Positions 1 to 15,705 are shown, counted from the first letter of the stretch. The stretch: 64,000 bases of DNA from Patescibacteria group bacterium (GCA_028715115.1 JAQUSN010000002.1:4944-68943), one strand, 5' to 3'. Notes: a model not told the origin generated them from the letters alone. Program-made: numbers and translations.

Positions 1-2
1 GC

Positions 3-620
3 TATCATTTGATTACCAACGACGAATGGATGGCCATTGCTCGAGACGCGGAACAAGTCCAAGCAAACTGGGCTAACAATCAAATCGGCTCGACCGTGGC
101 TTCTGGCGGCGGCTTAAAACGAGGCAATGTCGGCATTACCGATTCAGCCAGCTACAATGGCGCTGATCCGGAAAAGGGCCTAGGCAGAAATTCCAAAGCT
201 ATGTTGACCTTAAGTAACGGTTCAACTATTTGGGATATTTCTGGCAATGTCTACGAACACGTGTCTTTTACGCCGTCTGGCGCTGACGCTACCCACCAAG
301 AATTGGACCAACCAGACGATGACGATGTTTCAGGTTGGAATTACTATGAATTTACCGCTTTGAATAATAACGGGGCCAATACTTTTACTACCGGCTACAC
401 TGACGGCAAGGCGGTTTTTCGTCCCTCTGACGATACTTGGAATTCAAATTATGGTGTGGGCAAGATTTATGCCAACTCAAACTCAGCCGCTGTCACCGCT
501 CGCGTGTTCGTTCGTGGCGGCAACTGGCACAATACGTCCCGTGCCGGAGTCTTCGGCTTGGACTTGCATTGGACCGCGTCGGGTTCGAGCTACGATGTTG
601 GTTTTCGCTGCGCCCGGTAG
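3..620 (+). CDS. DGR target protein 1 (5'-truncated at window start); FGE-sulfatase / C-type-lectin-fold C-terminal domain carrying VR1
   Basis: The reading frame is open to the window edge. Motifs GNVYEHV and C-terminal VRGGNWHNTSRAG...VGFRCAR are typical of the FGE/CLec fold used by DGR variable proteins. The last ~120 nt match TR1 except at TR adenines. Confidence 0.8.
   Translation, partial: YHLITNDEWMAIARDAEQVQANWANNQIGSTVASGGGLKRGNVGITDSASYNGADPEKGLGRNSKAMLTLSNGSTIWDISGNVYEHVSFTPSGADATHQELDQPDDDDVSGWNYYEFTALNNNGANTFTTGYTDGKAVFRPSDDTWNSNYGVGKIYANSNSAAVTARVFVRGGNWHNTSRAGVFGLDLHWTASGSSYDVGFRCAR
497..619 (+). repeat. DGR variable repeat VR1 (cognate of TR1)
   Basis: The 123-nt alignment with 1683-1805 has ~17 mismatches. 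Every one lies at a position where TR1 has A, for example TR AAT/VR CGT and TR AACTTGAAC/VR GGCTTGGAC. The 3' ends are identical (...GTTGGTTTTCGCTGCGCCCGGTA). Confidence 0.9.
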
Positions 621-642
621 TCCCCGTAGATATTTGGTATTT

Positions 643-662
643 GGCCCGCCAGCAGGCGGGTT
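643..662 (+). other. GC-rich hairpin with 4-nt loop 24 nt downstream of VR1 (DGR target-site hairpin candidate)
   Basis: cccgcc AGCA ggcggg gives a 6-8 bp stem with a 4-nt loop. Placement and shape resemble the hairpins described downstream of DGR VRs. Confidence 0.55.
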
Positions 663-720
663 GGAAATTTGGCTTTCCGACTTAATCTTGTCTGTTCCGC
701 TTCATTTGTATAATTTTTAG

Positions 721-1207
721 AAAATTTTAGAAAATAATTACGCTTTTATTGATGGAGCCAATTTACACATGGGTGTAAAAAGTTTAGGTTGGAAATTAGA
801 CCATAGAAGATTTAGAATCTGGTTAACCGAGAAGTACTCTGTCAGCAAAGCATATATTTTTATCGGCTTGATTCCGAAGAACAAAGATCTTTATACTAAT
901 CTGCAAGAAGCCGGCTTCACTCTAATTTTTAAGGAAGTTGTTTATGATGGTGACGGCAAAGGGCAATTGCGATGCCGATTTGGTCTTAAAGACAACCCAA
1001 GAAGCTTATGAAAATTTATTTGATAAAGCTGCTATTGTTTCCAGCGACGGCGATTACGCTGGGTTAGTAAAATTTCTTCAAGATAAAAATAAATTGGCGA
1101 TAGTTCTTTCGCCAAATTTAGAAAATAAATGTTCGATTTTATTAAAAAGGACAAATGCGCGCATCGCTTATCTTAACGATCAAAAATCAATTTTAGAACT
1201 AAAATGA
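721..1207 (+). pseudogene. NYN/LabA-like (PIN-like RNase) domain gene, disrupted by a +1 frameshift in a GGG run (~961-963) and lacking an ATG start
   Basis: Frame 1 encodes AFIDGANL...LGWKLDHRRF...IFKEVVYDGDGK. The continuation GNCDADLVLK...IVSSDGDYAGLVKFLQDKNKLAIVLSP lies in frame 2 (ORFs 769-1011 and 938-1207). The only in-frame start after the upstream stop is ATT. Confidence 0.6.
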
Positions 1208-1326
1208 AAAAGCCCCCGATGGAGACGAGCTCCATAAGGGTCTTCTTCGTGGTGATAATGCTAGTACAATAGATTAGAGATTAAAGTCAAATTAAAATCT
1301 GTGGATAACCTTTAAAATTATTCAAA

Positions 1327-1662
1327 ATGCTTCAAAATCTACCGATTTTTCAAAAAATTTACGATTTAATCCTTTGGCTGCATCCGGTAATTAATAAATT
1401 TCCCAAGTCGCAGCGCTTTATCTTGGGCCAGCAGACGGAAAATACAGCCTTGGAAATTATCAAAAACGTCATTGCCGCCAACGCCGAAAGAAACAAGACG
1501 GCCTATCTTAAACAAGCCAGTATTGATTTAGATAAATTAAGAATTTTAATTCGTTTAAGTAAGGACTTGAAATTTATCAGTCTCAAACAATATAGCTTGG
1601 CCGCGGAGAAAATTAATGAAGTCGGCAAAATGCTCGGCGGTTGGCTGAAGAGCAGTTGTTAA
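1327..1662 (+). CDS. avd: DGR accessory variability determinant Avd (copy 1; four-helix-bundle family)
   Basis: 111 aa, helical, ending ...EVGKMLGGWLKSS. It is paralogous to the 3129-3482 ORF and lies immediately upstream of TR1. Size and position match the Avd / 23S-rRNA-IVS four-helix-bundle family. Confidence 0.75.
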   Translation: MLQNLPIFQKIYDLILWLHPVINKFPKSQRFILGQQTENTALEIIKNVIAANAERNKTAYLKQASIDLDKLRILIRLSKDLKFISLKQYSLAAEKINEVGKMLGGWLKSSC

Positions 1663-1682
1663 TCAAAGGGGCAAAGTCAAAG

Positions 1683-1805
1683 CGCTCACGTGTTCATTCG
1701 TGGCGGCAACTGGAACAATACGTCCAATGCCGGAGTCTTCAACTTGAACTTGAATTGGAACACGTCGAATTCGAACAACAATGTTGGTTTTCGCTGCGCC
1801 CGGTA
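1683..1805 (+). repeat. DGR template repeat TR1 (adenine-rich on + strand)
   Basis: Asn/AAC-rich pseudo-ORF (NWNNTSNAGVFNLNLNWNTSNSNNNVGFRCAR). It matches VR1 with all differences at TR adenines, and sits 20 nt downstream of avd1. Confidence 0.9.
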
Positions 1806-2055
1806 CTCTTTTTTCTGGCCAGAGCAAAATGTCTATGGACATGAGCCAGCGTCAGAAGACTACGGATTTTGTTCCTCTCCTTAGTAGGTCAAAGCAGTGG
1901 CAGCTAGAGGTTTGACCGAACAGGGAAACCAAAAAGCTCGTACCCTTGAGGAATCAAAGTAGTTTTTTTCGAAATCTTTCCTTAAGGCCAATGGGCTTTG
2001 GCTAAAAATAACAGGACTATTTGTGTTGTCTTGTTGTTTTTAGTCTCCGACCTTT

Positions 2056-3105
2056 TTAATCTTTCAACCACCACCAAAATTGATTTTTGAGATATTGGCC
2101 TAATTTGTAAGTATTAGCATGTGACAATACACCGAGATATGATTGGAGCGATTGTTCGAGCGTCTTCTCGCTAATTATACCATTTTTATATTCTTTAATT
2201 CGGCCCCTTAACTTTCGCATTATTCTTTGTTTCGTTTTAGTTTTGATTAGGCGGTAATAGGGTAGGAGTAGGTGGCCTAGAAAATCAATGCCCTGATCAA
2301 ATTTACGAATGATAATTTTCTTCGGATGAATTTTTAAGAATAATTTTTGCTCTAAAAGTTTTTTCATCGCTTTTAATATTTTTCTTAGATATTTTTTATC
2401 ATTAGCCACGACAATAAAATCATCTGTATAGCGCAAATATTTTTTAATTTGTAATTCATGCTTTACAAATTGGTCAAACTCGTTAAGATAGATATTCGCA
2501 AATAATTGAGAGGTCAAATTACCAATCGGGAGGCCTCTCTTTTTAAATAGATCGGATTGATTAGAGCAAAAACTTTCAATAATTTCCTTAATTAACCACA
2601 TTGCCTTGTCGTCTTTTATCTTTCTGCTGACAATTTCTAATAGAGTATCATGATCCACGCTGGCAAAGAATTTACTGATATCGCATTTGAGGATAAAACA
2701 AGGTTTGGTGTGATTAGCACTAGTAGCTCGTAGAATTTTGGTTAGACAATTCACGGCCTTGTGTGCTCCTTTGTTAATTCGACAAGAGAAAGAATGGCCG
2801 ATAAAGGTTGGTTCAAAAATTGGATTCAAAACAGTAAAAACCGCATGATGCAGTACGCGGTCACGAACCAAGGCTTTGTGAATGTGCCGTTGTTTGGGAT
2901 CGGTAATAAAGAAAGATGTGTATGGGCCATGCTTGTAAGCATGGTTTTGTAAGTCCCGGTACAATTGGAAAATATTGGGCTCTAAATTAAATTCAAACTT
3001 CAGGATATCTGATTTTTTCTTTTTATCTTGGCGAAATTCGTCCCAAGCTGAAAACAGATTTTCCAAAGAGATGATCTTTTCAAACAGATGGCTATAGATC
3101 TTCAT
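2056..3105 (-). CDS. DGR reverse transcriptase
   Basis: 349 aa RT with the YTDDF (YxDD) catalytic motif and LPIGNLTSQLFANIYLNEFD. The SQ substitution in motif 4 is the DGR-RT hallmark. Flanked by TRs and avd genes. Confidence 0.9.
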   Translation of the reverse strand: MKIYSHLFEKIISLENLFSAWDEFRQDKKKKSDILKFEFNLEPNIFQLYRDLQNHAYKHGPYTSFFITDPKQRHIHKALVRDRVLHHAVFTVLNPIFEPTFIGHSFSCRINKGAHKAVNCLTKILRATSANHTKPCFILKCDISKFFASVDHDTLLEIVSRKIKDDKAMWLIKEIIESFCSNQSDLFKKRGLPIGNLTSQLFANIYLNEFDQFVKHELQIKKYLRYTDDFIVVANDKKYLRKILKAMKKLLEQKLFLKIHPKKIIIRKFDQGIDFLGHLLLPYYRLIKTKTKQRIMRKLRGRIKEYKNGIISEKTLEQSLQSYLGVLSHANTYKLGQYLKNQFWWWLKD

Positions 3106-3128
3106 TTTAATTTTTAATAAATAAAACT

Positions 3129-3482
3129 ATGCCCAACGAATTCGACGTTCCCATCTTAAAAAACATCTATGATCTCTACAAAATATTCTATGGTTTTCGC
3201 CACGGTGTTTCCAAACAGGATCGCTACACTATTTGGCAAAAATCAGAGAACCTGATTTTAGAGATTATTGAAGCCATTCTTTTGGCTAGCCAGCAGAGCA
3301 AGATTAATAAAGTGCCAACCCTTGAGCGAGCTAGCGCTAAACTTAACTTCTTGCGAGTTTTTATACGCTTGATGAAAGAAGTCAAAATCATTGACCAGAA
3401 AAAGTATCTAACCTTGCAAGAAGCTGTTGATGAAATTGGCCGGATGCTTGGTGGTTGGTTAAAATCTAGTAAAGATTTTTAA
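3129..3482 (+). CDS. avd: DGR accessory variability determinant Avd (copy 2)
   Basis: 117 aa paralog of 1327-1662 with the same C-terminal ...EIGRMLGGWLKSS. Its start lies 23 bp from the divergently oriented RT start. Confidence 0.75.
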   Translation: MPNEFDVPILKNIYDLYKIFYGFRHGVSKQDRYTIWQKSENLILEIIEAILLASQQSKINKVPTLERASAKLNFLRVFIRLMKEVKIIDQKKYLTLQEAVDEIGRMLGGWLKSSKDF

Positions 3483-3492
3483 GACTTCAATC

Positions 3493-3517
3493 AAAGGGCC
3501 CCTTATGGGGGCCCTTT
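3493..3517. terminator. Perfect 10-bp GC-rich hairpin between avd2 (+) and TR2 (-); candidate bidirectional terminator / DGR RNA structural element
   Basis: The stem aaagggcccc pairs with ggggcccttt across loop ttatg. A T-rich run follows on the minus strand. Confidence 0.55.
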
Positions 3518-3535
3518 GGCTTAGACAGAGAAATG

Positions 3536-3654
3536 ACTTCCGGGCCGCGGACAGACCGATGTTGTCGTTGCGGTTGTCATCCCAGTTGTTGTTGACGTTG
3601 AGACCATTCGCATCGAAGTTGCCGACGTTGACGCGGTTACCGTCCGAAGTGAGA
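3536..3654 (-). repeat. DGR template repeat TR2 (adenine-rich on - strand)
   Basis: The plus strand is T-rich (ttgttgttgacgttg...), so the minus strand encodes an Asn-rich stretch (GNRVNVGNFDANGLNVNNNWDDNRNDNIGLSAARK). It matches VR2 and VR3 with differences only at plus-strand T, i.e. minus-strand A. Confidence 0.85.
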
Positions 3655-3985
3655 AAACTGTCTGTTTTCATCCAAATCTTCAGAAGTTGAGGTTTGCCGT
3701 TCCGTTAAGAATCTATATCCTCTTCTTCTTGTTTACCCTGAGTCGTGGGAAGGGTAGTTTATTCGAGAGTACTCCGATTAAATCAGAGATCTCCACTAAA
3801 AACAGACAAGAAGTTCTGCCTCCATCTTTTTTCACGCGCTATCGCAATCCGTAGAAAGGCGATACTCTGGTGAAGTCTCCCGCTTCCGCCGAAGCTTCGA
3901 CAGGTAGGCAAAAGAAGAGACGTTCGGCGAGGTTAAACCTTGATCTAGCCTTCATTAGCCGAACATTATTATAATATATCAATTT

Positions 3986-4046
3986 TAACAAAAAAGAAAG
4001 AGCCTCCACACAGAGCTACCGGTTGTGGTAGATGTAACGGAGGCTC
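3986..4046 (-). terminator. Rho-independent terminator / conserved 3' element downstream of target gene 2
   Basis: gagcctcc...ggaggctc forms an 8-bp outer stem enclosing an inner hairpin (ctacc ggttgt ggtag). On the minus strand a T-run follows. The block is conserved with 5135-5210. Confidence 0.6.
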
Positions 4047-4085
4047 AAGGATTCAAGAAGTGTCTAGGTCTCGATGACTCAAGAC

Positions 4086-4913
4086 TCAGAACTTCCGGGC
4101 CGCGGACAGACCGATGTGGTCGTAGCGGTAGCCATCCCAGTCGTCGACGACGAGACCATTCGCATCGAAGTAGCCGACGTAGACGCGGTAACCGCCCGAA
4201 GTGAGATCGGAGCAGCGGCCATATCTGGTCGGATTGACGTACTGACCGCTCTTCTTGAAGTACAGCATGGCCTTGGTAACTTCGGTCACAGCCGGCGGTA
4301 CCTCATAGTTGGTCGGCAGCATACTCTGTTGGTCAGCGAAGGTCTTGTCTTCGGAATTCGGTACGATCTCGAGGGGCATCAGCCGCCAACGCAACTTGCC
4401 GGTCGTTCTGACGGCGAAACGCTGGTTGCTGTACCAGGCCTCGGAACTGTACTTGTAGAACCTGGGTTGGCCCGGGGCCGGCTGCAACTGCTGCCACTTC
4501 ATGATGGTCAGCGGAGTGCCGTTGATCCGATCGAGCTCGAGGAAGGCGATGTGCGTTTCGCGAATCGTCTTGCCGGGCACGAAGGGGCACGGGCTGTTGA
4601 GCACTGTCTCGTTCCAGGGGAATCGGGCAATCTCTCGGAGCTGCTTCTTGGTGAAGCGTGCTCCGTAAAGCGCGGCCCAATCGTCAGGACCGAAGAAGCG
4701 TTCGTTACCCATCAGCTCACGGACGAGTTCCAGCGAGATCGGACTCTCGACTTCGCCGCTCAGGAAAGCTTCCGCCACCTTGCGGGCATAGTCAGGGTCG
4801 GTTCGCACACGATCCCAGTGGACCTTCGTCACTCCTCGATCTTGGAGTGCCTTGAGGGTCGATCCGATTTCTCCGAACTCCAGAGTCCAGAGACCATTTT
4901 GGTTTGTACCCAT
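4086..4913 (-). CDS. DGR target protein 2 (C-terminal CLec-like VR2); paralog of target 3
   Basis: 275 aa with C-terminus ...YRVYVGYFDANGLVVDDWDGYRYDHIGLSAARKF. The last ~116 nt match TR2 with A-site substitutions. GC-rich gene (~60%). Confidence 0.8.
   Translation of the reverse strand: MGTNQNGLWTLEFGEIGSTLKALQDRGVTKVHWDRVRTDPDYARKVAEAFLSGEVESPISLELVRELMGNERFFGPDDWAALYGARFTKKQLREIARFPWNETVLNSPCPFVPGKTIRETHIAFLELDRINGTPLTIMKWQQLQPAPGQPRFYKYSSEAWYSNQRFAVRTTGKLRWRLMPLEIVPNSEDKTFADQQSMLPTNYEVPPAVTEVTKAMLYFKKSGQYVNPTRYGRCSDLTSGGYRVYVGYFDANGLVVDDWDGYRYDHIGLSAARKF
4091..4206 (-). repeat. DGR variable repeat VR2 (cognate of TR2; one 3-nt deletion relative to TR2)
   Basis: The 3' end (acttccgggccgcggacagaccgatg) is identical to TR2. 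Internal differences are T to C/A/G on the plus strand. One CAA triplet of the TR CAA-repeat is missing. Confidence 0.85.
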
Positions 4914-5134
4914 GGTACTTACCTCCTGTTGTGTTTGTATTCTCTTTGTCCTTTAGAGACTTTAGAGAATTTGACCTAGGCCGTAGGTCGCGGTCTCATC
5001 TTGGAATAAGACGAGCGTTTTAAAAATCAATTATCTTGATGCCCAAAACGCTCGTCTTATTGTCATCCCCTTACTTATTCTGATTATATTTTATCACATT
5101 TTTCCAAAAAAGTCAAGTTCTAGCTTGATCTTTA

Positions 5135-5197
5135 AGATTAAAAGAAAAGAGCCCTCACCACATGACCCGCCAAGTTTGGCGGATGTAGCGAAGGCTC
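5135..5197 (-). terminator. Rho-independent terminator / conserved 3' element downstream of target gene 3
   Basis: gagccctc...gaaggctc forms the outer stem (7 of 8 bp) with an inner hairpin (ccgcc aagttt ggcgg), followed by a T-run on the minus strand. It shares the motif GATGTARCGRAGGCTCAAGGAWTCAA with 4031-4060. Confidence 0.55.
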
Positions 5198-5228
5198 AAG
5201 GAATCAAAAGGCTCGAGTGTTCGAGGTT

Positions 5229-5993
5229 TTAAGCTTCGAACTTCTGGGCCGCGGACAGACCGATGCCGTCGTCGCGGTAGTCATCCCAGTCGTCGCTGAC
5301 GAGGAGACCATCCGCACCGAAGTAGCCGACGTAGACGCGGTTACCGTCCGAAGCGAGATCACTGCAACGAACGTAGACGCTTTCGAACAAGCGCTTGCCG
5401 GTGGCCAGGAAGTACAGCACCATGGTGTAGATCACCGTCTGAGCGGTGGGTGTGTATTCGTTCTCGGCCAGCAGCGCCTGCTGCTCGGAGTAGGTCTTGC
5501 CGATGGAGTTGTCCACCGGTGTCTTCCGAATCAGTTCCCAGCCGACTTTGCCGGGTTGCGAAGCGAACTTCTGGTTGTTGTACCAGTCCTGACCATAGAA
5601 GACTTTGCCCTTGCCGGCAACCAGGCGACGGATCTCGATGATCGAGGTGCCGAGGTTGGCTACCAGCAGGTGGGTGTTCTTGCAGGCTTCGAGTTCACCC
5701 TCGGTGAACGGCACTTCGGCCAGGGCCTTGATGATTTCGGGGCTCGGAGTGAGTCCGAGATGCTTGGCCGCCTCTTCGATGCCGAGCATGTTCGTGCCCA
5801 TGATGGCACGGGCACGTTCCTGCGATGTCGTCGGCGTAAAGCCGCCGGCGGTTGCGAATGTGGCCAGGCGATCGACGAAGGCGGGGTCGGCGTTGATTCG
5901 ATTGACGATCTGATCGGCGTTGTCTCCGAAAGCAACCCGGAGACGCTGTTCCGCGGCATTGAGATCGCCGGCGGGGACTTGTGTCCATTTCAT
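5229..5993 (-). CDS. DGR target protein 3 (C-terminal CLec-like VR3); paralog of target 2
   Basis: 254 aa ending ...GNRVYVGYFGADGLLVSDDWDDYRDDGIGLSAAQKFEA. The last ~119 nt match TR2 with A-site substitutions. GC-rich. Confidence 0.8.
   Translation of the reverse strand: MKWTQVPAGDLNAAEQRLRVAFGDNADQIVNRINADPAFVDRLATFATAGGFTPTTSQERARAIMGTNMLGIEEAAKHLGLTPSPEIIKALAEVPFTEGELEACKNTHLLVANLGTSIIEIRRLVAGKGKVFYGQDWYNNQKFASQPGKVGWELIRKTPVDNSIGKTYSEQQALLAENEYTPTAQTVIYTMVLYFLATGKRLFESVYVRCSDLASDGNRVYVGYFGADGLLVSDDWDDYRDDGIGLSAAQKFEA
5240..5358 (-). repeat. DGR variable repeat VR3 (cognate of TR2)
   Basis: Same length as TR2 (119 nt). Differences sit at plus-strand T positions (ttg to ccg/tcg/ctg/agg etc.), plus a single C/T difference near the 3' (IMH-like) end. 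Confidence 0.85.
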
Positions 5994-6087
5994 GGCAGAC
6001 TCCTTTCTCTGTTGACCCTTTGAGATTATTGCTGGGCGACTAGATGAGGATTTTGGGCTTACGATCCCTGTTTACGACCTGTCTCGG

Positions 6088-6150
6088 GAATGAGGCAAGT
6101 TATCTAAAGACCATTGTTTAATGATTTCCAGATAACTTGTCTCATTTTTT
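6088..6150. repeat. Palindromic repeat copy C of the AAATGAGACA(C)...TGTCTCATTT family
   Basis: gAATGAGgCAAGTTATC - 26 nt - GATAACTTGTCTCATTTT is an inverted repeat of 17 bp with 2 mismatches. Related elements occur at 14807-14858 and 56692-56826. Confidence 0.5.
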
Positions 6151-6283
6151 CTCTTGAATTCCTAATATATTTTGAGTTGTAAAGAACCTCCTTTGATTCT
6201 TATGCATATATTATAGCACAAAATAGGAAAAAGTCAAGAGCAAATTTTTGGCTTAAAATAAGTAGGGTTTGATGATTTTACGG

Positions 6284-7618
6284 TTATTTATTCTCTTCCA
6301 TTACGGTAATCTTTTTATCTTTGTATTTTAATTTGCTTTTTAGATTAGCCAGTAGCTCCCGTTTGTCTGAGATACCGCCTTCTTTTAAGAGATACTTAGC
6401 ATATTCGCGGATATTAACTTCACTTTCTTCAACCAAGGTTGGCGCGGTTTTGGTATTGCTGTCAACGATTTTTCTTAATTTATTAAATCTTTTAATTTCA
6501 TCTTGGAGCTTAACTCTTATCCCCAGTTCATTGATACTTACAATATCTATAATCTTAAACAATTCGTCAATTAATTCCTCTTCCCTAATATATTTATTTT
6601 TACAGTTTCTATCTTTGGCCCTTGAGCAGCCGTAATAAATATAATGAGCCGAGCTGCCATCTTTGAGGGTTTTCCATTTTTCTTCAGCCGATATTCCTGA
6701 CCCGCAATAGCCGCAAGTGAATAGTTTAGTGAAGGCGAACTCCTTGTTTTCTCGGACGATCTGATCTCTTTTTAATTGTGCTTTGGCCTTTTCAAATAAT
6801 TCCTGAGTGATAATTGGCTGATGTTTGCCGGTATACCAGTTGCCGCTGCCTCGGGGATGTTCAAAAGCTCCATAATAGAACGAATTGTCTAGAATGCGAT
6901 AAATCCCGCTTAGGGTTAGCGGCTTATTGCCTCGAGTATAGAAGTTCAGCTCGAATCTTAGCCAGTTGTACAGCTTAATGCCGGAACAATATTCGTAAGC
7001 AACCTTTTCGAACATTTTTTTAATTATTGGAGCCCTAGCCGGATCAACGACGATCTGGCATTTTTTATCCATCAATTTTTGGTTTAGATATCCAAGGGGA
7101 GCTAGTCCGGGCCATAAGCCCATTTCTACCCTAGTGCGCAATCCTCGTTTAACGTTAATACTGCGATTATCATTTTCCAGTTTAGCTTGCGAACCCAATA
7201 TCATTAACAGAAATTTCTCGTTAGGGTTATTGGTAAATTTTTGGCCAAACGTACGAATCTCTATTAAAAGCTTGGCATCCATTAAATCAACTATTTTACC
7301 CAGATCGCCGGCATTTCTTGAAATTCTATCTGGCGCCCAAGTCAAAATAGCGTTATATTTTCCCTGTTTGATTTCTTCGATAATCTCATTGAAGATCGGC
7401 CTCTGTCCTGCTTCTTTGGCTGAATGCGACTCACGCTTCACGGCCGTGACCTCCAAGTTTTCCTTTTCGGCCAATTGAAACATTTCTTTAATCTGGCTAT
7501 CAATCGACAGTACCTGTCTTTCTTCACTTTCAGTGCTTTTTCTAGCATAAAGGCAATATTTAGCCTTAATTACTTGATTAAGTCCTTGATTTTTTGCTAA
7601 GGTTTTTGTTTGTTCCAT
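6284..7618 (-). CDS. Large serine recombinase (resolvase/invertase N-domain + recombinase domain + zinc ribbon)
   Basis: The N-terminus YCLYARKSTESEERQVLSIDSQ carries the catalytic Ser context. A recombinase domain follows, with a Cys cluster CGYCGSG...YYGCS. It is ~60% identical to 48535-49896. Confidence 0.85.
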   Translation of the reverse strand: MEQTKTLAKNQGLNQVIKAKYCLYARKSTESEERQVLSIDSQIKEMFQLAEKENLEVTAVKRESHSAKEAGQRPIFNEIIEEIKQGKYNAILTWAPDRISRNAGDLGKIVDLMDAKLLIEIRTFGQKFTNNPNEKFLLMILGSQAKLENDNRSINVKRGLRTRVEMGLWPGLAPLGYLNQKLMDKKCQIVVDPARAPIIKKMFEKVAYEYCSGIKLYNWLRFELNFYTRGNKPLTLSGIYRILDNSFYYGAFEHPRGSGNWYTGKHQPIITQELFEKAKAQLKRDQIVRENKEFAFTKLFTCGYCGSGISAEEKWKTLKDGSSAHYIYYGCSRAKDRNCKNKYIREEELIDELFKIIDIVSINELGIRVKLQDEIKRFNKLRKIVDSNTKTAPTLVEESEVNIREYAKYLLKEGGISDKRELLANLKSKLKYKDKKITVMEENK

Positions 7619-7923
7619 AGGTTTTTGTCTTATTGGTTACTATGGAAAGGAATGACAAAACTGCTCAAAGAGTCCAGAGCAGAGGAGTAGACAACCTGTC
7701 GGTAACTAAGCTTCACTTTTTACTTTGTTATGTTAAGATATAAGCACAATTAATTTGCCTAAACCCATGGATTTCTGTGGGCATGGCAATAAAAACCGGT
7801 AAAGGATATTAAGCTCGTCGTCAGAGCTCCTTTACCGGTCATATCCTCGAAAGGGGGTATGGGTAGCGCAAGCTATCGCTGGCGGCGAGCTTTGTGTTTT
7901 CCGCCAAATAGTAATTTTATTTT

Positions 7924-8778
7924 ATGAAAAACAAGGTTATTAATTGGCTATTTATTCTCTGTCTTTTTCTAGTTTCTTTATCTTTGACTGGCTGTTCAAG
8001 CCAGACCACTAATTTAATAAACCAGCCAACAAACAATGTTGTTAATCAAACTAATAGTCCGACAGAAGCAGCAAACGAGGTGGTGCAAAACCTTCAAAAC
8101 AATGTTGTCATTAACAATAAAGATAATAGTGTGGTGGATAATAATCAAATCCCCGACTATTATTCTGTCACTAAGGTGGTTGACGGCGATACTTTTAAGG
8201 TCTCAATCAATGGCTCAGAAAAAAGCATTCGTTTGATCGGCCTTGATACGCCAGAAACTGTTGACCCAAGAAAGCCAGTTCAATGTTTTGGAGTTGCGGC
8301 ATCAAATAAGGCCAAAGAGTTATTGTCTAGCAAAAAAGTAAAACTCGAAGCCGATTCATCTCAAGGCGATCTTGATAAATATGGCCGCTTGCTTCGTTAT
8401 GCTTTTTTGGAAGACGGTACCTTCTTTAACAAGTGGATGATCGCTAACGGTTATGGTCATGAATATACGTACAATTTGCCGTATAAATACCAAACAGAGT
8501 TTAAAGAGGCCGAGAGATCAGCCCAAACCAATAAATTGGGCTTATGGGCCGACGGCGCCTGTGATAGTCAAGCCAATACACAATCCCCAGTTCCGGCCAC
8601 ACCAGCAGCTACGGGGCATGTTTTTTACACCTCATCTTACTACACCTCTAAAACCTATTATTGTGATACAGATTTGGCATGGAAAAATCTTAGCCCAAAA
8701 TACCTGAAACAGTTTTCAAGCGAAGTAGAGCTATCAAAGGTTTATCCTACCAAGACTCTTCACGAACCATGCAAATAG
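7924..8778 (+). CDS. Thermonuclease (staphylococcal nuclease-like, SNase) lipoprotein
   Basis: Lipoprotein signal ...LSLTGCSS. SNase motifs DGDTFKV...IRLIGLDTPE...YGRLLRY. Confidence 0.8.
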   Translation: MKNKVINWLFILCLFLVSLSLTGCSSQTTNLINQPTNNVVNQTNSPTEAANEVVQNLQNNVVINNKDNSVVDNNQIPDYYSVTKVVDGDTFKVSINGSEKSIRLIGLDTPETVDPRKPVQCFGVAASNKAKELLSSKKVKLEADSSQGDLDKYGRLLRYAFLEDGTFFNKWMIANGYGHEYTYNLPYKYQTEFKEAERSAQTNKLGLWADGACDSQANTQSPVPATPAATGHVFYTSSYYTSKTYYCDTDLAWKNLSPKYLKQFSSEVELSKVYPTKTLHEPCK

Positions 8779-9984
8779 TTATCCGTTTGTTGAGCTATTA
8801 TTTTTAGGTGGTGGCCATGGCTTACTAATCATGCCTCCCTCCTTATTATAATCTATAAGATATTCTCGTGTTTTCTCCTTGCTCTCCATGAGCTCAAGGA
8901 AATGGTTCCAGTCTTCTACCGTTACCACCTCTCCATTTGGACCGACGCTTTTTGAGCTATAGGGAGCACTGATGCAAAAATCAGGATGAATATTTCTCTT
9001 TTCTCTCTCTTCAGGACTTAAATATTGACCGAAATATTTTTCATAAAGCGCTGGTGGATAAAATTCGCGAGTTCGAGGGCCGGTTACTAGTAAATATTCC
9101 TGTAGCCAAATTAATTCATCCGAGCAACTGCTTTTTATTCTTTCAATATCTTCGGGTTTGAATTTCTCCGGCCAAAGGTTTCGATCATTATCATCCAAGA
9201 GGGGATAAATGCAGCAGGCAGCATTGGCAATCCGATTCTGAACAATTTCCCTATAAAGCTTCATAATCAATGATGAATTGTCTAATAGATTGCCCAATAC
9301 GACAATGTTGGTTGATTTATCGCCGGCCGGCATAATCTCATTTTTAAACCATTCGCACATCCTTTTGCCTTCTTTGTAATTTTTCGCGGATTGCCTGTCT
9401 TCCAAATCGTCACAAATAATCAGGTCGGGTCGATGCTGTCCGAATTTTATTCCCCTGATATTTTGCCGTAATCCGGCAGCCATAATCATGGCTCCGTATT
9501 TTTTTAGCAAAATATGGTTTGGCCCCCAATCTTCATGATCTTGACGGAAGCCGCCGAAGTCATTATTTAATAGTTCATTGCTTTCCAGTTCGTATTTTAT
9601 ATTTTCCAGATGAAGCTTGGCTTGTTTTTTGTGCTGACTTAGAATCAGCACAAACTTTTTTTGCGGTTTGCCGATGATTGACCAAATAATGTTCGAAAGA
9701 TTCATGATGGTGCTTTTGCCTGAACCGCGAAAAGCGATTATGTTAACCAATCGATATGAGGGATCTTCTGTGATAGTCAGCATCTGTTTGTGGAAAATAG
9801 CCAAAGGATAGCTTAAATGATCAGCCAAGTAAATTTTTGAAAACCAATAGTGACTTTGCTTGGCAAGTTCTTGTCGGAATCGGCGGCTTGTTTTTATCTG
9901 TTCAAAAATGGTCCCAATCGGCTGGGTCTCGTTCCTTCTTGGCACCAGCTCCGTCTGTTTTTGGCGGGATTCCTGATTTGTCAT
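8779..9984 (-). CDS. Phage terminase large subunit (TerL)-like ATPase/nuclease
   Basis: Walker A AFRGSGKST and Walker B LIICDDLED, with C-terminal acidic nuclease-like motifs. It is overlapped upstream by a TerS-like ORF. Confidence 0.75.
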   Translation of the reverse strand: MTNQESRQKQTELVPRRNETQPIGTIFEQIKTSRRFRQELAKQSHYWFSKIYLADHLSYPLAIFHKQMLTITEDPSYRLVNIIAFRGSGKSTIMNLSNIIWSIIGKPQKKFVLILSQHKKQAKLHLENIKYELESNELLNNDFGGFRQDHEDWGPNHILLKKYGAMIMAAGLRQNIRGIKFGQHRPDLIICDDLEDRQSAKNYKEGKRMCEWFKNEIMPAGDKSTNIVVLGNLLDNSSLIMKLYREIVQNRIANAACCIYPLLDDNDRNLWPEKFKPEDIERIKSSCSDELIWLQEYLLVTGPRTREFYPPALYEKYFGQYLSPEEREKRNIHPDFCISAPYSSKSVGPNGEVVTVEDWNHFLELMESKEKTREYLIDYNKEGGMISKPWPPPKNNSSTNG

Positions 9985-10354
9985 ATTCCTCTTTTGCCAC
10001 TTCCGTGGCTATTTTTAACAATTTAATTTGCTCCGGCTTTAATTCTTCATAATACGCTTCTTTTACTGTGTGCAGTTTCTCGGCATATTGCGAATGGTGA
10101 TTCTTAAGCCAATAAATAATGGCCGTGATATTTCCTTTTTTTATCAAGCTGAGCAACTGACTTTCAGCCATATCGTTGATTAGTGACGATCCATCAGAAA
10201 TGGCATCATCGGCTAATCGGGCAAAGGCTTTATCTTCCTTGCGCCAACGATAATAGCTGCTTCTGTTGAGCCCGACCTTTTCACAGGCAAACTGAACTAT
10301 GGGGACCCTCTTTAGTTGCTCAAGCAGATTTCTTTTTATTTCTTTGGTCTTCAT
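9902..10354 (-). CDS. Phage terminase small subunit-like / HTH DNA-binding protein
   Basis: 150 aa with an N-terminal HTH-like segment (FACEKVGLNRSSYYRWRKED). Position immediately upstream of and overlapping TerL. Confidence 0.45.
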   Translation of the reverse strand: MKTKEIKRNLLEQLKRVPIVQFACEKVGLNRSSYYRWRKEDKAFARLADDAISDGSSLINDMAESQLLSLIKKGNITAIIYWLKNHHSQYAEKLHTVKEAYYEELKPEQIKLLKIATEVAKEEYDKSGIPPKTDGAGAKKERDPADWDHF

Positions 10355-11751
10355 AAAACCTTGTGCGCTTTAACTCCGGTTAGCTTTTCCCATCGGTTCC
10401 GAATAACCTCTGCATAGACGGGCGACTTCTCCATTAGATAGCAGCGACGTTTCATCTTCTCGGCAGCGATCAGTGTTGATCCGCTGCCGCCAAACGGCTC
10501 AATAATTAAGTCATTTCTCTTGGTTAAAACCTTGAGATAGGGGATAAGAACTTCAAGCGGTTTGGTTCCGAAGATAATCCCTTGGCCTGAGCTTTTCTCG
10601 TCGGCGGCCGTATATTCGATATAATCGGTGGGGCAATATTTCTTGCCGGCTTCGTAGCTTTCCCAATGCGGTTTGCCGGAAGTGGCGTAAAGAGCGTTTT
10701 CATATTCCTCTTGCAGTAATCCTTCTTCGGGCCCCAAATTCAAATCAACTTTCCCCTGGGTTCCCACGGCGGCAATATCTGTCTTATTGAAGAATTTATA
10801 TTTAGCTGCAAAGCCCTGGCATCTGTTTGGCACATGCCAAGTAATCGTATTTCTGTATTTCCAGTGTTTCTCTAATTCCAACCAAATAGTTTTAAGATTC
10901 TTGGGATTTTCAAAGACAATAATTGAAAAGTCGGACTTTTGAATCTTGGCAACATTAGCCATCCATTTTTCGGTAAAGTCCGGCGGCAATTCATCTGTTT
11001 CCAGATATTTGCGATCTCGCTTTAAACCAAATCCCTCGATTGCTTCGCCGTGCTTCTTTTTGCCTTTTAAATAATCTAAGAGGTAAGGTGGGTCAGTGAA
11101 ACACATATCTGCACTTTCATTGCCCATTAGCCTCAAGACGTCATTTTCAATAGTTGAATCGCCGCACATTAAGCGGTGATTACCTAATTGCCAAACGTCG
11201 CCCCTTTGAATCTCAATTTGAGAAATGTTTAATTTATCCAATTCTTTCTTTAGATCAAATATTTCTGGGCTTTCGTCAATGCCAAAGATGTTATCCATCT
11301 CTTCCGAAGAGAATCCAACGTCGCCCAGCATCTTTTCGCCAAAATCAGCCAAAATGTTCCAATCAAACTCACCGGTGTTTTTATTGAGGCGAAGATTGAT
11401 TTCTTTCTCAAGCTCTAGGCCTGGGATATCAACCCAAACAATGGGCACGGTGGTAAAGCCCAATTCTTTGACAATCTTTAACCGAAAATTCCCGCCTAAC
11501 ACCACCCCTTTGCGGTTTAACGCTGAATTAACAATTAAAGGATCAATTAGTCCGAATTTAGCAATTGATTCTTTTAGATTTTTGCTTGTTTCATCTGACC
11601 AGACTCGTGGATTATATTCACACGGTTTTAGTTGATCAATTGAAACGTACTCGACCTTTAGAATTGACTTCGCGACAGAAGTTTCCATAGGTATTAAATT
11701 AATGATTAATAAATTAAATAAACAAAAGCGACCCAAAAAAGAATTCATCAA
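10351..11751 (-). CDS. ParB-like nuclease domain fused to DNA methyltransferase (N6-adenine/N4-cytosine, beta class)
   Basis: N-terminal ParB-N-like region, a DPPY motif (MCFTDPPYLLDY) and a C-terminal SAM motif I (IIEPFGGSGST). This is the typical phage ParB-MTase architecture. Confidence 0.8.
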   Translation of the reverse strand: MMNSFLGRFCLFNLLIINLIPMETSVAKSILKVEYVSIDQLKPCEYNPRVWSDETSKNLKESIAKFGLIDPLIVNSALNRKGVVLGGNFRLKIVKELGFTTVPIVWVDIPGLELEKEINLRLNKNTGEFDWNILADFGEKMLGDVGFSSEEMDNIFGIDESPEIFDLKKELDKLNISQIEIQRGDVWQLGNHRLMCGDSTIENDVLRLMGNESADMCFTDPPYLLDYLKGKKKHGEAIEGFGLKRDRKYLETDELPPDFTEKWMANVAKIQKSDFSIIVFENPKNLKTIWLELEKHWKYRNTITWHVPNRCQGFAAKYKFFNKTDIAAVGTQGKVDLNLGPEEGLLQEEYENALYATSGKPHWESYEAGKKYCPTDYIEYTAADEKSSGQGIIFGTKPLEVLIPYLKVLTKRNDLIIEPFGGSGSTLIAAEKMKRRCYLMEKSPVYAEVIRNRWEKLTGVKAHKVL

Positions 11752-11961
11752 AAATTGATGTAACCCTTTTTTGGGCCGCGTTGTACATGTTGGAGATCAA
11801 CCTAGGTTGGTGATTATCTTGATTCGATGGCTAATGTTATCGTAGCCTATCGGCGGAATTACGCGGTCTGTATTAAATTGTTATTTATAGTATAAAACAA
11901 GAATATATTTTGGCAAGAAAAGTTATCCACATATCGTGAACCCTGTGAACATAGTATACAC

Positions 11962-11989
11962 TTGACAGTTTTTAAAATGATGTTATGAT
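11962..11989 (+). promoter_or_regulatory. Sigma70-like promoter (TTGACA - 16 nt - TATGAT) for the repressor gene
   Basis: ttgaca at 11962-11967 and tatgat at 11984-11989, directly upstream of the ATG at 11992. It lies in the divergent region between ParB-MTase and the repressor. Confidence 0.4.
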
Positions 11990-11991
11990 AA

Positions 11992-12645
11992 TTGCATATG
12001 ACTATTCATAAAACACAACTTAAATTATTAGAATTAATGAAAACACACAATCTGAATGGCCTGTCTTTGCGTGATATTGGTGAGTTAATTGGGATAAAGG
12101 ATAAACCCCATATAATTAGGCATCATCTTTTACAATTGAAGAAACGAGGACTCATCTATTGGGATCAATCAAAAAAAGAGATTAGAAAAATATCAAAGGG
12201 AATAGAGAGCGATAGCGGTTTAGTTCCCATTCCCATTCTTGGCGCGGCTAATTGTGGCCCGGCCACTCTTTTGGCTGAACAAAATATTCAAGGATATCTT
12301 AGGATATCAAAAAGATTTTTGCCTCGAGTTACAAAAAATATCTTTGCCATTAGAGCCGTTGGTTCATCTTTGAATAGGGCCGATGTTGATCACAAAGGAA
12401 TGCATATTGATGATGGCGATTATGTTTTGATCGATAGTAGTTATCGAAACCCACAAAACAAAGATTATGTTTTATCTGTTATTGATGATGTTGCCAATAT
12501 TAAGAAGTTTATCAGAGAGAAAAATAAAATAACTTTATTATCTGAATCAACAGAAAATATTCCACCCATCTATATACACCGTGATGATAATTATATGATT
12601 AACGGTAAGGTAATCCAAGTAATTAAGAAACCTAAAATAGATTAA
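11992..12645 (+). CDS. LexA/CI-like repressor (N-terminal winged HTH + S24 peptidase domain)
   Basis: An HTH-like N-terminus (LSLRDIGELIGIKDKPHIIRHHLLQLKKRGLI), then an S24-like AIRAVGSSLNRA (Ser) and a later Lys. The divergent orientation from the phage genes is typical of a CI repressor. Confidence 0.65.
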   Translation: MHMTIHKTQLKLLELMKTHNLNGLSLRDIGELIGIKDKPHIIRHHLLQLKKRGLIYWDQSKKEIRKISKGIESDSGLVPIPILGAANCGPATLLAEQNIQGYLRISKRFLPRVTKNIFAIRAVGSSLNRADVDHKGMHIDDGDYVLIDSSYRNPQNKDYVLSVIDDVANIKKFIREKNKITLLSESTENIPPIYIHRDDNYMINGKVIQVIKKPKID

Positions 12646-12806
12646 TAGTATTTATAGTTCTTTAAAAGCTGGCGAGGAAAAACGGCGCCCGATTTATGTT
12701 TCTTTTATCTCAGACTAATCACCTTTACCCCCTCCAAGAGTTATTTTACGATGATTCTTGGAGGGCTGGTTTAAAGGTTGAACAGTCCGAGTTTAATTAA
12801 CAATAA

Positions 12807-12998
12807 TTGACGTACTGTTTTATGAATGAACGAATTTCGGTTAAGACAGGACAGATAGCGCCAATCTCTGGTCAATATAGGCCGGTCGGCACTACTTTTG
12901 AGATCACCCTTTCTAAGGGCGATCGCGTCCCGCCTTATCAAGGCAGAGCCTGGACATTTGTTTTGGTTGATAAAACCAAACATATGATTAGGTACTAA
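12807..12998 (+). CDS. Small hypothetical protein (YjzC-like?)
   Basis: 63 aa. KTGQIAPISGQYRPVGTTFEITLSKGDRVPPYQG resembles the small YjzC family. The ORF overlaps an antisense ORF, so the call is weak. Confidence 0.3.
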   Translation: MTYCFMNERISVKTGQIAPISGQYRPVGTTFEITLSKGDRVPPYQGRAWTFVLVDKTKHMIRY

Positions 12999-13050
12999 TC
13001 TTGCTTTAAGCCTCGTCAGCTTTTAGAGAACTATACGATGTTATAATTTT

Positions 13051-13644
13051 ATGCTGTCTAAGAAATCTATCGAGGAATATAAAAGGATATACAAAGAACA
13101 TTATGGTCAAGAAATATCAGACCAAGAAGCTCTCGAACAGGGGACCAATCTGCTTAATTTTTATAAGATTCTTTATGAGTGCGAACTGAAGGAATTTCGA
13201 TGGAAAGAGAAATTAAAAGACAGCCCCAAGGGGGTTCACATAGATGCTGGGGAATATACTTGTTGTGTGTGCAAAAATCATGTTGATGGTACAGTTTGTT
13301 GGTATGATCAAAATGGTATTAAATGCCCTCTATGCCAGAAAGCTGTTGAGAATAATATCATTCCAGTAGAAGTTTGTAAGGATCGTGATAGTTGGTATGC
13401 TGTTTGGGAATTTGATCATTATTTTAAGATGAAAGCAGCTACCGTTCGTAAGTTCATTCGCAATGGTAAACTTAAAGCAAGAATTATAACAGATGAAAAC
13501 GGGCATACACATTGCGAGGTTTTAATGATTAAAGAAAATTCAGAAGTTTTACCATCCAAGCCAAAGAGTCATATGGTGCAAAATAAAGATGGGTCGTTCC
13601 ACGTAGAGTATGAAGAAGTTAATTTAGATAAGTTATTAAAATAA
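13051..13644 (+). CDS. Hypothetical Cys-rich protein (possible zinc-binding)
   Basis: 197 aa with CCVCKNH...CWYDQNGIKCPLCQK. No family was recognised. Confidence 0.5.
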   Translation: MLSKKSIEEYKRIYKEHYGQEISDQEALEQGTNLLNFYKILYECELKEFRWKEKLKDSPKGVHIDAGEYTCCVCKNHVDGTVCWYDQNGIKCPLCQKAVENNIIPVEVCKDRDSWYAVWEFDHYFKMKAATVRKFIRNGKLKARIITDENGHTHCEVLMIKENSEVLPSKPKSHMVQNKDGSFHVEYEEVNLDKLLK

Positions 13645-13653
13645 AAATATTTT

Positions 13654-14433
13654 ATGGATAATGATGGAATAAATTTAGATTTATGGAATAAATTAAGTGC
13701 TGTTCAAAAGAAGACTCGAATAGAGTTCGCGCTAAAAATTATTATTAATGTTGCGCAGATTCAAAAACAATCACTAAAAAATATTAAAAAATTTGGTAAT
13801 CCAGACGCAGAAAGGTTTCTCTATTTTGAGAAAACATTAGATGATATATGGGAAAACATAAAATTTGCTATTTCATTGGGAAAGGGGAAAAACAGAAAGT
13901 TTGCCTTTTATCCCGCTAGAAGTGTTTTAGAAAATTTTTTTAGATTAGATTATTTTACCCAGCAAAATCCGCAAGAACAAAAAAATATTGCCATGATGGA
14001 GGCTCTTAAAGTTTGTAAGATAATGTATGATCAAGAAAAAACAAACAATCATACAGAGGGGATGAAATCTTTTAATAATCACTATCAGAAAGTAAGCGAT
14101 GGTACCTACCAAGATATTGATAGTATAAATTTAAGTAGTCTTGATGCGTTTCCGTCAATGAAAGAAATGATGAAGCGTTCAAATCTTCTAGATGGGAATG
14201 AATGGTATTTTATATATCGGAGCTTGTCAGAGTCTGCTCATGGAAAATTTATGGCTAGACTGATTAGAGAACTTGATGATAGGGCAGAGTATATTAGATC
14301 ATTAATGTGTTTAAATCGTATAGCAATTGAAACAATTAAAATTACTGATTTCCATTTAAGATTTAAAACTAAAGATGACGTAAAAAGGGTTATTATACAG
14401 GCTAAGTCAATCATTGAGAGACAACAATCATGA
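13654..14433 (+). CDS. Hypothetical protein
   Basis: 259 aa ORF with coding-like composition. No motif was recognised. Confidence 0.5.
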   Translation: MDNDGINLDLWNKLSAVQKKTRIEFALKIIINVAQIQKQSLKNIKKFGNPDAERFLYFEKTLDDIWENIKFAISLGKGKNRKFAFYPARSVLENFFRLDYFTQQNPQEQKNIAMMEALKVCKIMYDQEKTNNHTEGMKSFNNHYQKVSDGTYQDIDSINLSSLDAFPSMKEMMKRSNLLDGNEWYFIYRSLSESAHGKFMARLIRELDDRAEYIRSLMCLNRIAIETIKITDFHLRFKTKDDVKRVIIQAKSIIERQQS

Positions 14434-14768
14434 TTCAATTTATTACACCAAAATTATTTCAGAGCATTGTTGATCAGGGTTATGATATGGCGGCTTTATG
14501 GATGAACGAAGTGGTCAAAATGATTTTAAAATTATATTGGCCATATATTTTAGCTTTTTTGTTTTTCGCTGCATTGGTCAAAATTTGCCAATGGAGAATT
14601 GGCAGTTTAATTTATCATATAATTGCCGGCACCTTTTTAATGGTCCTATTTATAATTGGTGGGGGATTTAAAATATTTTTTAATCCCTTCTTTGATTTAA
14701 TCTGTTTTTTCATATATAAACTTTCATTCTATTTAACGGGCCAAACTTGGCACAGTAGATTAAGGTAG
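14430..14768 (+). CDS. Small membrane protein (3 predicted TM segments)
   Basis: 112 aa with hydrophobic stretches. Overlaps the preceding gene by 4 nt. Confidence 0.5.
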   Translation: MIQFITPKLFQSIVDQGYDMAALWMNEVVKMILKLYWPYILAFLFFAALVKICQWRIGSLIYHIIAGTFLMVLFIIGGGFKIFFNPFFDLICFFIYKLSFYLTGQTWHSRLR

Positions 14769-14806
14769 TTAATGTTCTTCTGGATAGAGAAGAAGGGTAT
14801 CTTAGC

Positions 14807-14858
14807 AAAAAGAGACACAAAGCACTCCTTTTTATAGTGTCTCATTTGTCGCATTTTG
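14807..14858. repeat. Palindromic repeat copy A (AAAAGAGACAC - 18 nt - GTGTCTCATTTGTCGCATTTTG)
   Basis: The right arm is near-identical to 56734-56755 (GTGTCTCATTTGTCTCATTTTG). It lies just after the last gene of island 1. Confidence 0.5.
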
Positions 14859-15084
14859 GGCTGCATAAGGTCGGCCTAGCAACCCACGTGCTTCAAAATT
14901 AGCACTAGACAAGTCGCCAAATAAGCTTTATAATTTCTATATATACGGGGTACTTAACCAGAGTGTCCCGCCAGCAAAAATATTTATTACATAATCAAAA
15001 AGCTCCGCAAGTGGGGCTTTTTGGTTAGTTCAACATGTCCTTGACGTACGCCCCAGCATATTATATTATTTAAATAGTTGGATA

Positions 15085-15693
15085 TTGGAGGTCTTTTCGT
15101 CAGATATAACATTATTTTTTAATGGGTTTATGTCTGTATCGAAGGTGATCATAATATCCGGACCCCCATGTACGGGGAAAACTACTTTAGCGAAAAAAGT
15201 AGCAAGCGTTTTTGGTTTGCCTATAGTTAGTTGTGACTCGATAAGGGAAATACTGTTTGATATATTTAATTGTTCTAATTTAGTGATGTTTAGAAAAGAT
15301 CGAGAAGCCGGCTTTGCCATCATGTTTAATATTTTGAAATTACTTTTTACTTGCAACCAGAATTTAATAATTGATTCGACTTTTTGGAGAAGAGAGGTTA
15401 GGAAAGAATTAAAAAAATTACAGAAACAATATAAGTTTAAATCTTTACAAATCAATCTTAAGTCATCTGGCATTGTTCTTTGGGATAGATATCAAGAGAG
15501 GGTAGCGTCTGGCCATCGGCATAAGGGATATTTAGATCATTTAAGGCAAAGAGAATTAAGGGCTAAGATTATAAAAGGTTTTTCTATTCCGCCTAAATTG
15601 AAGGGCAAAACCATAAAAGTAGATACAACCGATTTTACCAAGGTTGATTATAGGGGGTTAATAAAGAAGATAAAAATTTTTTTAGCAGCATAG
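15085..15693 (+). CDS. P-loop NTPase / kinase (AAA_33 / zeta-toxin-like fold)
   Basis: Walker A ISGPPCTGKTTLAKK. The true start may be the internal Met (MSVSKV, ~15130). Confidence 0.55.
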   Translation: MEVFSSDITLFFNGFMSVSKVIIISGPPCTGKTTLAKKVASVFGLPIVSCDSIREILFDIFNCSNLVMFRKDREAGFAIMFNILKLLFTCNQNLIIDSTFWRREVRKELKKLQKQYKFKSLQINLKSSGIVLWDRYQERVASGHRHKGYLDHLRQRELRAKIIKGFSIPPKLKGKTIKVDTTDFTKVDYRGLIKKIKIFLAA

Positions 15694-15705
15694 ATTATAA
15701 TATAA

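Follow-up and report, generated by a model that had tools for sequence, protein, structure and literature searches.

One-codon length changes in two variable repeats served by one template repeat in a diversity-generating retroelement of a Patescibacteria chromosome

Layout of the retroelement and its target genes

The DNA analyzed here is a stretch of 64,000 nucleotides (the window) from a Patescibacteria group bacterium (GCA_028715115.1, JAQUSN010000002.1:4944-68943), the left 6 kb of which contains components of diversity-generating retroelements (DGRs). Our subject is the DGR in which a single template repeat (TR), TR2, serves the variable repeats (VRs) of two target genes. The locus is very probably a working DGR of the TR-(avd)-RT (reverse transcriptase) layout on a Patescibacteria chromosome, in which VRs occasionally lose a codon through realignment while the reverse transcriptase, RT-A, copies three tandem AAC codons.

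The two target genes are paralogues that lie adjacent to each other and in the same orientation on the minus strand. Target gene 2 (4086..4913; 275 aa; GC 59%, GC at third codon positions (GC3) 73%) and target gene 3 (5229..5993; 254 aa) encode proteins that are 37% identical, have a C-type-lectin fold, described for target gene 3 as C-type-lectin/FGE (formylglycine-generating enzyme)-like, and carry VR2 and VR3, respectively, at their C termini. No family was assigned to these proteins by Pfam or NCBIfam. Each gene is preceded by a σ70-like promoter on the minus strand (5088..5116, TTGACT-17-TAAAAT, for target gene 2; 6237-6210, TTGACT-16-TATAAT, for target gene 3). A hairpin followed by a T-run, read directly from the sequence, lies downstream of target gene 2 (3999..4048, minus strand), and a paralogous copy follows target gene 3 (∼5150-5207; repeat D3, 4026-4056 and 5177-5207). 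Around 430 nt of non-coding DNA downstream of the targets leads to the 118-nt repeat TR2 (3536..3654, minus strand; 118-119 nt), which contains 31 adenines and ten AAC codons.

RT-A (2056..3105) is encoded on the same strand as TR2 and contains the motifs LPIGNLTSQ and YTDD, the sequence IGxxxSQ being a hallmark of DGR reverse transcriptases. The protein matches RVT_1 with 83 bits, and its closest relative of known structure is 8ub7_A, a reverse transcriptase of 328 aa that aligns over the full length (residues 4-343; E 1.4e-44). NCBIfam holds no DGR reverse transcriptase model, and all matches of RT-A to its group II intron, Drt, and retron models fell far below the cutoffs. Between TR2 and RT-A, and antiparallel to them, lies avd2 (3129..3482, plus strand), which encodes an accessory four-helix-bundle protein. 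Avd2 matches the bAvd family PF22296 with 69.3 bits (cutoff 40) and scores 75.9 bits with DivGenRetAVD, just under the cutoff of 80. The order TR-(avd)-RT recurs in relatives on contigs L024, L023, and L030. The locus shows features that define a DGR, namely a TR/VR pair whose differences are confined to adenines, an adjoining reverse transcriptase of the DGR clade, an Avd protein, a C-terminal VR on a target of the C-type lectin type, and diversification restricted to the VRs.

Alleles of VR2 and VR3 in six assemblies

Three copies of the repeat were recovered by MAFFT alignment of TR2, VR2, and VR3 and by a repeat finder (family D1: 3536-3660, 4088-4212, and 5240-5364). A preliminary description of the window had proposed that both VRs derive from TR2 by changes at template adenines, and the codon-by-codon alignment for which it called, which placed the three copies where it had located them, bears this out. 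In VR2 (4091..4206, minus strand; allele VR2b) 12 of 12 substitutions are at TR adenines, which account for 29 of the 115 aligned positions (hypergeometric P = 8e-9). VR3 (5240..5358, minus strand; allele VR3a) has 14 substitutions at adenines and a single G>A change at TR position 113 (CGG>CAG; plus-strand 5245; hypergeometric P = 6e-9). The latter is the one C/T difference that had been noted in the otherwise TR2-like 3′ end of VR3.

VR3 retains the length of TR2, as had been described, and VR2 is one codon short, in frame, near plus-strand position 4142. On the minus strand, repeat codons 18-24 are CTC AAC GTC AAC AAC AAC TGG in TR2 and CTC CTC GTC AGC GAC GAC TGG in VR3, and the matching stretch of VR2 is CTC GTC GTC GAC GAC TGG. 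The site of the one-codon length changes is the (AAC)3 run of TR2 (3585..3593, minus strand; gttgttgtt on the plus strand). To the earlier account we add that the gap in VR2b may be placed either in this run or at the lone AAC that precedes the run by two codons, with only adenine changes in both cases. In VR3b, an allele found in a sister assembly, the gap falls only within (AAC)3 at minimal mismatch.

All three copies end in a shared GC-rich 3′ block, ATCGGTCTGTCCGCGGCCC, which occurs exactly three times in the window, with zero occurrences expected by chance. The 3′ block of VR2 is the same as that of TR2 over 25 nt; identity between the two runs to GGAAGT and is followed by divergence. By its position the block is a candidate for containing the initiation-of-mutagenic-homing site (IMH) of the VRs and its TR counterpart (IMH*). 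Exact scans of the metagenome_contigs and genome_contigs collections for the 19-nt block gave single chance matches in high-GC genomes, and no tblastn match to the targets.

The window was compared with five further assemblies of the same strain (L001, L019, L020, L021, and L022); the additional contigs came from three sequencing runs and two further metagenome-assembled genomes, L021 being the Logan assembly of SRR22315506. Contig L001 (GCA_028686935.1) encodes P0001, a relative of the VR3 protein that is 95% identical and one residue shorter. Over positions 1-15993 of the window, 15,993 bp aligned with L001, and all 35 differing columns were in VR2 (4118-4195) or VR3 (5267-5354), with no difference in VR1 and TR1 (which belong to a second DGR, described below), TR2, RT, or avd. 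L019, L020, and L022 differed from the window by only 17 mismatches and one gap, and L021 was identical to it. Over the aligned sequence, up to 15,993 bp, every difference among the six assemblies falls within VR2 or VR3. The window VR2 and the VR2 of L001, L019, L020, and L022 are separated by 17 substituted positions, 17 of 17 at TR adenines, and by a 3-nt indel.

Exact look-ups in a collection of 15 billion proteins (two 90%-identity clusters) found only four alleles: VR2a (276 aa), VR2b (275 aa), VR3a (254 aa), and VR3b (253 aa). Each carries 12-14 substitutions at TR adenines (P 5e-10 to 9e-8), the exception to the adenine pattern being the fixed G>A at the 3′ end of VR3. The alleles are combined in three haplotypes. 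Haplotype A (L019, L020, and L022) has full-length VR2a and full-length VR3a, haplotype B (the window and L021) has VR2b, one codon short, with full-length VR3a, and haplotype C (L001) has full-length VR2a with VR3b, one codon short. Because the short alleles are in different genes on different haplotypes, codon loss arose independently at least twice. An assembly artefact was rejected as the source of VR2b, which recurs in the independent assembly L021, in frame and with adenine-only substitutions. Gene conversion between VR2 and VR3 was likewise rejected as the source of the deletion, the two deletion alleles differing at >10 positions and residing on different haplotypes.

The two VR3 alleles also indicate how much of the repeat is exchanged. 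The CAG codon (CGG in TR2) is kept in both VR3 alleles and so persists through rewriting, which places the 3′ limit of the transferred sequence upstream of that base. VR3a has an A>G change in codon 2 that VR3b has reset, showing that nearly the whole repeat is replaced per event.

VR2 and VR3 are both live targets of one TR. The preliminary description had left room for VR2 no longer receiving cDNA precisely, in which case it would be a decayed former target, its deletion the product of drift, and would be invariant across a population in which VR3 varies. Apart from the length mismatch nothing speaks for such decay, which the comparison of assemblies refutes: VR2 and VR3 both vary, the length variants and continuing adenine-site variation that the same description had suggested looking for in VR2 are present among otherwise identical genomes as the 275- and 276-aa alleles with their 17 TR-adenine differences and indel, the 25-nt 3′ block is the same as in the TR, and the open reading frame (ORF) is intact and has a promoter and a terminator to itself.

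The sequence of TR2 is constant wherever it was assembled, L021 and L022 breaking off inside it, and the (AAC)3 run is present in all five assemblies that cover that part (L021 ends before the run). This bears on the direction of the length change. From the window alone, a recent gain of one AAC by the TR, with only VR3 updated since and VR2 of ancestral length, would be as parsimonious as a deletion in VR2. Such a gain is refuted by the occurrence of (AAC)3 in 5/5 covering assemblies alongside a full-length VR2a and a short VR3b, and by the modal VR length of the target family, which equals the TR length and from which it follows that the short alleles are derived.

Origin of the missing codon

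Two candidate RNA elements flank TR2. Directly 5′ of it, on the minus strand, is a conserved, apparently structured non-coding element (3655..3962), with a −10-like box just upstream and counterparts at 1085-1334 in L024, 6094-6345 in L023, and 4140-4398 in L030. Structure prediction gave 68 pairs, with 97% of cells paired and 24 pairs changed on both sides compared with 1-6 in slid controls, figures drawn from four sequences only and from a structure derived from those same sequences. In the template RNA of the DGR it may well serve as the 5′ domain. Rfam gave no match in the DGR region, this element included, and none came from a scan of the viral_contigs collection with a degenerate motif built on the element. 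On the 3′ side, ∼20 nt from TR2, a hairpin is predicted in the TR RNA (3493..3517, minus strand; ΔG −24.8 kcal/mol, z −3.05), preceded by the conserved motif GTCA..CTCT.TC.AAG. L023 and L024 have a hairpin of another sequence at the matching position. This hairpin could be an analogue of a primer or spacer, or a bidirectional terminator shared with avd2.

We propose the following mechanism, in which the machinery would consist of RT-A, Avd2, and the RNA elements on either side of TR2. An RNA comprising the structured 5′ domain, TR2, and the 3′ hairpin would be copied into cDNA by RT-A with Avd2, bases being misincorporated at random opposite the adenines of the template. The cDNA would then replace the last ∼115 nt of either of the paralogous C-type-lectin-fold genes, both of which share with TR2 the homology of the repeat and the GC-rich 3′ block. 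Along the (AAC)3 run, in which as many as two incorporations in three may be mismatched, the nascent cDNA would occasionally realign by one repeat unit and yield a VR allele one codon shorter. As TR2 would be left untouched, the next homing event could restore the full length.

One of the two readings offered by the preliminary description was slippage at the repeated Asn codons while cDNA is synthesized or homes, and the comparison of assemblies supports it in that the deletion comes with complete rewriting in two VRs while the TR stays constant. Retrohoming itself is the most plausible occasion for the codon loss, given the lack of background mutation over 16 kb, the two deletions in the same short NAC-codon stretch, and the complete rewriting of adenine sites that accompanies each; the loss most likely occurs by reverse transcriptase slippage, and the slip itself is inferred to fall in the reverse transcription step. 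Off-modal VR lengths are also found elsewhere in the family, in ∼13 of 99 proteins. Those relatives that were checked against their own TR differ from it by +3 nt (L023), +3 nt (L024), and −3 nt (L030), in each of the three cases in a NAC-periodic stretch.

The codon might instead have been lost after homing, by DNA replication slippage on trinucleotide repeats left in the new VR and with no part played by the DGR enzyme. VR2b (GTC GTC GAC GAC) could indeed descend from an allele of full length in which GAC or GTC stood three times. We nevertheless consider this route quite improbable. A repeat of three units is a poor substrate, VR3b (TAC GTC GAC CGC) retains little repeat, and ∼16 kb without any other mutation contrasts with deletions that arose independently in two genes, both in the same short stretch of NAC codons. 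The indels found across the family also lie in NAC-periodic stretches of the template.

Another route within homing would be the loss of one repeat unit from a full-length cDNA, either because it anneals out of register or because integration or repair of the heteroduplex trims it. The periodic NNC stretch does permit many registers with mismatches at adenine sites only. The published interpretation, however, prefers slippage of the reverse transcriptase, and the +3-nt insertions of the relatives arise just as easily from its backward slippage; we regard loss from a full-length cDNA as unlikely.

Slippage of RT-A on the AAC codons is thus the origin that we favor, and several points weigh against it. 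The codon-loss step is deduced from assemblies. A mutagenized VR may retain short repeats (e.g. GAC GAC GAC) that are open to ordinary replication slippage, and the gap in VR2 can equally be assigned to the isolated AAC upstream of the triple run. The four alleles are so few that the rate of two short alleles in four is anecdotal, and selection for a shorter loop could inflate it. Finally, both deletion alleles have a pair of A-site substitutions in common at the VR 5′ end. These are GAC>GGC and AAC>TAC, which give GGC GGT TAC in VR2b (window 4185-4199) and in VR3b (L001 10645-10659); their sharing could be due to chance, to context-biased misincorporation, or to selection.

It is conceivable, and we put it forward tentatively, that slippage in NAC stretches, instead of being a rare error, happens often in this Patescibacteria TR-(avd)-RT lineage and provides a second way of diversifying, perhaps under selection, one that would vary the length of the loop as well as its sequence, with the unchanged TR able to restore the length. 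The hints behind this suggestion are the two short alleles among four in one clonal population, the ∼13 of 99 family proteins of off-modal length, and the departure of all three checked relatives from their own TR. Separately, one lineage of the family (L025/L026 7628-7777; P0052, P0035, and P0040) carries a three-codon duplication in the VR (YFDAFDA); the DNA retrieved for this lineage contains no TR.

Neighboring elements and relation to known systems

A second DGR is arranged back to back with that of TR2 (window 1-1808; L001 14190-17928). It comprises target 1, a pilin-like protein with an FGE-type VR1 (497-622), avd1 (1327-1662), and TR1 (1683-1808), which differs from VR1 only at A. A second DGR-type reverse transcriptase, RT-B, is found in L001 just past the left end of the window and is co-oriented with target 1, avd1, and TR1. 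VR1 is identical in all of the assemblies, whereas VR2 and VR3 differ. Service of both TR1 and TR2 by RT-A was considered and rejected, because L001 has the second reverse transcriptase beside TR1 and the TR-(avd)-RT module stands alone in L024; TR2 belongs with RT-A and avd2, as in that stand-alone cassette. Between its conserved RT motifs RT-B contains a (GA)n run encoding ...LEREREREDK... (L001 17490-17512, outside the window), a tract that could be prone to slippage. Between target 1 and avd1 lies an NYN-domain gene (769-1207) that appears split into two overlapping ORFs (769-1011 and 938-1207). The split is the same in L001 and may represent a frameshift or a pseudogene.

On the other side, the target genes adjoin a gene for a large serine recombinase (6284-7618, minus strand), which is followed by a LOOT RNA (7756-7877, plus strand; Rfam RF03000, 93 bits). 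The DGR of L023 also has a serine recombinase next to it, and the DGR may ride on an integrative element.

The target family is GC-rich in every genome examined, with a GC content of 58-61% and a GC3 of 73-84% over the whole ORF and not in the VR alone. Members with this composition are the two target genes of the window (4086-4913 and 5229-5993) and those at L023 6577-7347, L024 216-986, L025 7001-7777, L028 4001-4765, L029 4001-4768, and L030 3285-4049. GC3 is 27-62% in neighboring Patescibacteria genes, those of the window lying at 34-40%, and the intergenic DNA on either side is AT-rich. Third-position A and T are equally depleted in the target genes, so their GC content is not simply a footprint of adenine mutagenesis. 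In L028 and L029 the target copies are surrounded by housekeeping genes, and the 4 kb around them contain no RT.

Length differences between TR and VR have been surveyed previously: they occur in 7% of DGRs, and 14 of 25 were multiples of 3 (Wu et al. 2018, NAR 46:11, PMC5758913). The in-frame indels were mostly beside AAC codons, and template slippage of the reverse transcriptase was proposed as their origin (Wu et al. 2018, PMC5758913, Fig. 4C and text), a model repeated in a 2026 study (PMC12875486). The survey further reported that the targets of one DGR can show different indel patterns, that in-frame indels are concentrated in DGRs related to Lineage 4, and that DGRs of the candidate phyla radiation (CPR) are noted for frequent non-A substitutions (PMC5758913). 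As in those indel DGRs, VR2 of the window and VR3 of L001 show a multiple-of-3 length difference adjoining AAC where the TR is rich in this codon, the changes being otherwise A-to-N, and the same kind of difference is found in the relatives L023, L024, and L030. Unlike the survey, which compared TR and VR in snapshots of single genomes, the present comparison covers three haplotypes of one strain and two targets, the indel arriving independently in each target together with complete rewriting of the VR and the TR remaining unchanged.

DGRs with several targets make up ∼15% of the total, with examples in Treponema denticola and Legionella (Wu et al. 2018, PMC5758913). As in these, one TR diversifies paralogous VRs with common 3′ homology, and nothing essential differs; here the targets are adjacent and co-oriented, and each has a separate promoter and terminator. 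In order and strand, TR2, avd2, and RT-A match architecture B3, TR-(avd)-RT (Wu et al. 2018, Fig. 5, PMC5758913), with no difference found. The DGR of Bordetella phage BPP-1 (mtd, avd, TR, brt) is arranged as avd-TR-Sp (spacer), in contrast to the TR-(avd)-RT order with antiparallel avd seen here. The present system also differs from BPP-1 in having two targets, an apparently structured 5′ domain of ∼300 nt with only a ∼55-nt hairpin region 3′ of the TR, and a GC-rich 3′ block that is identical in TR2 and VR2.

No new principle is involved, since DGRs with multiple targets, in-frame indels at AAC, and the cassette layout were all described in the 2018 survey. Two of the observations made in passing, the GC3 of 73-84% in target genes of AT-rich genomes and the conserved, apparently structured RNA 5′ of the TR, are possibly more interesting. 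With its small reverse transcriptase, Avd protein, and TR RNA, the DGR is a tractable system for measuring the rate at which DGR reverse transcriptases change loop length, a rate of relevance to the engineering of DGRs for directed evolution. The value of the locus is as a natural before-and-after comparison of otherwise identical genomes from related samples that differ in two VRs only. This natural experiment shows that both targets are live, that the whole VR is replaced per event, and that codon loss travels with the rewriting while the template stays fixed, and it supports the published idea of slippage.

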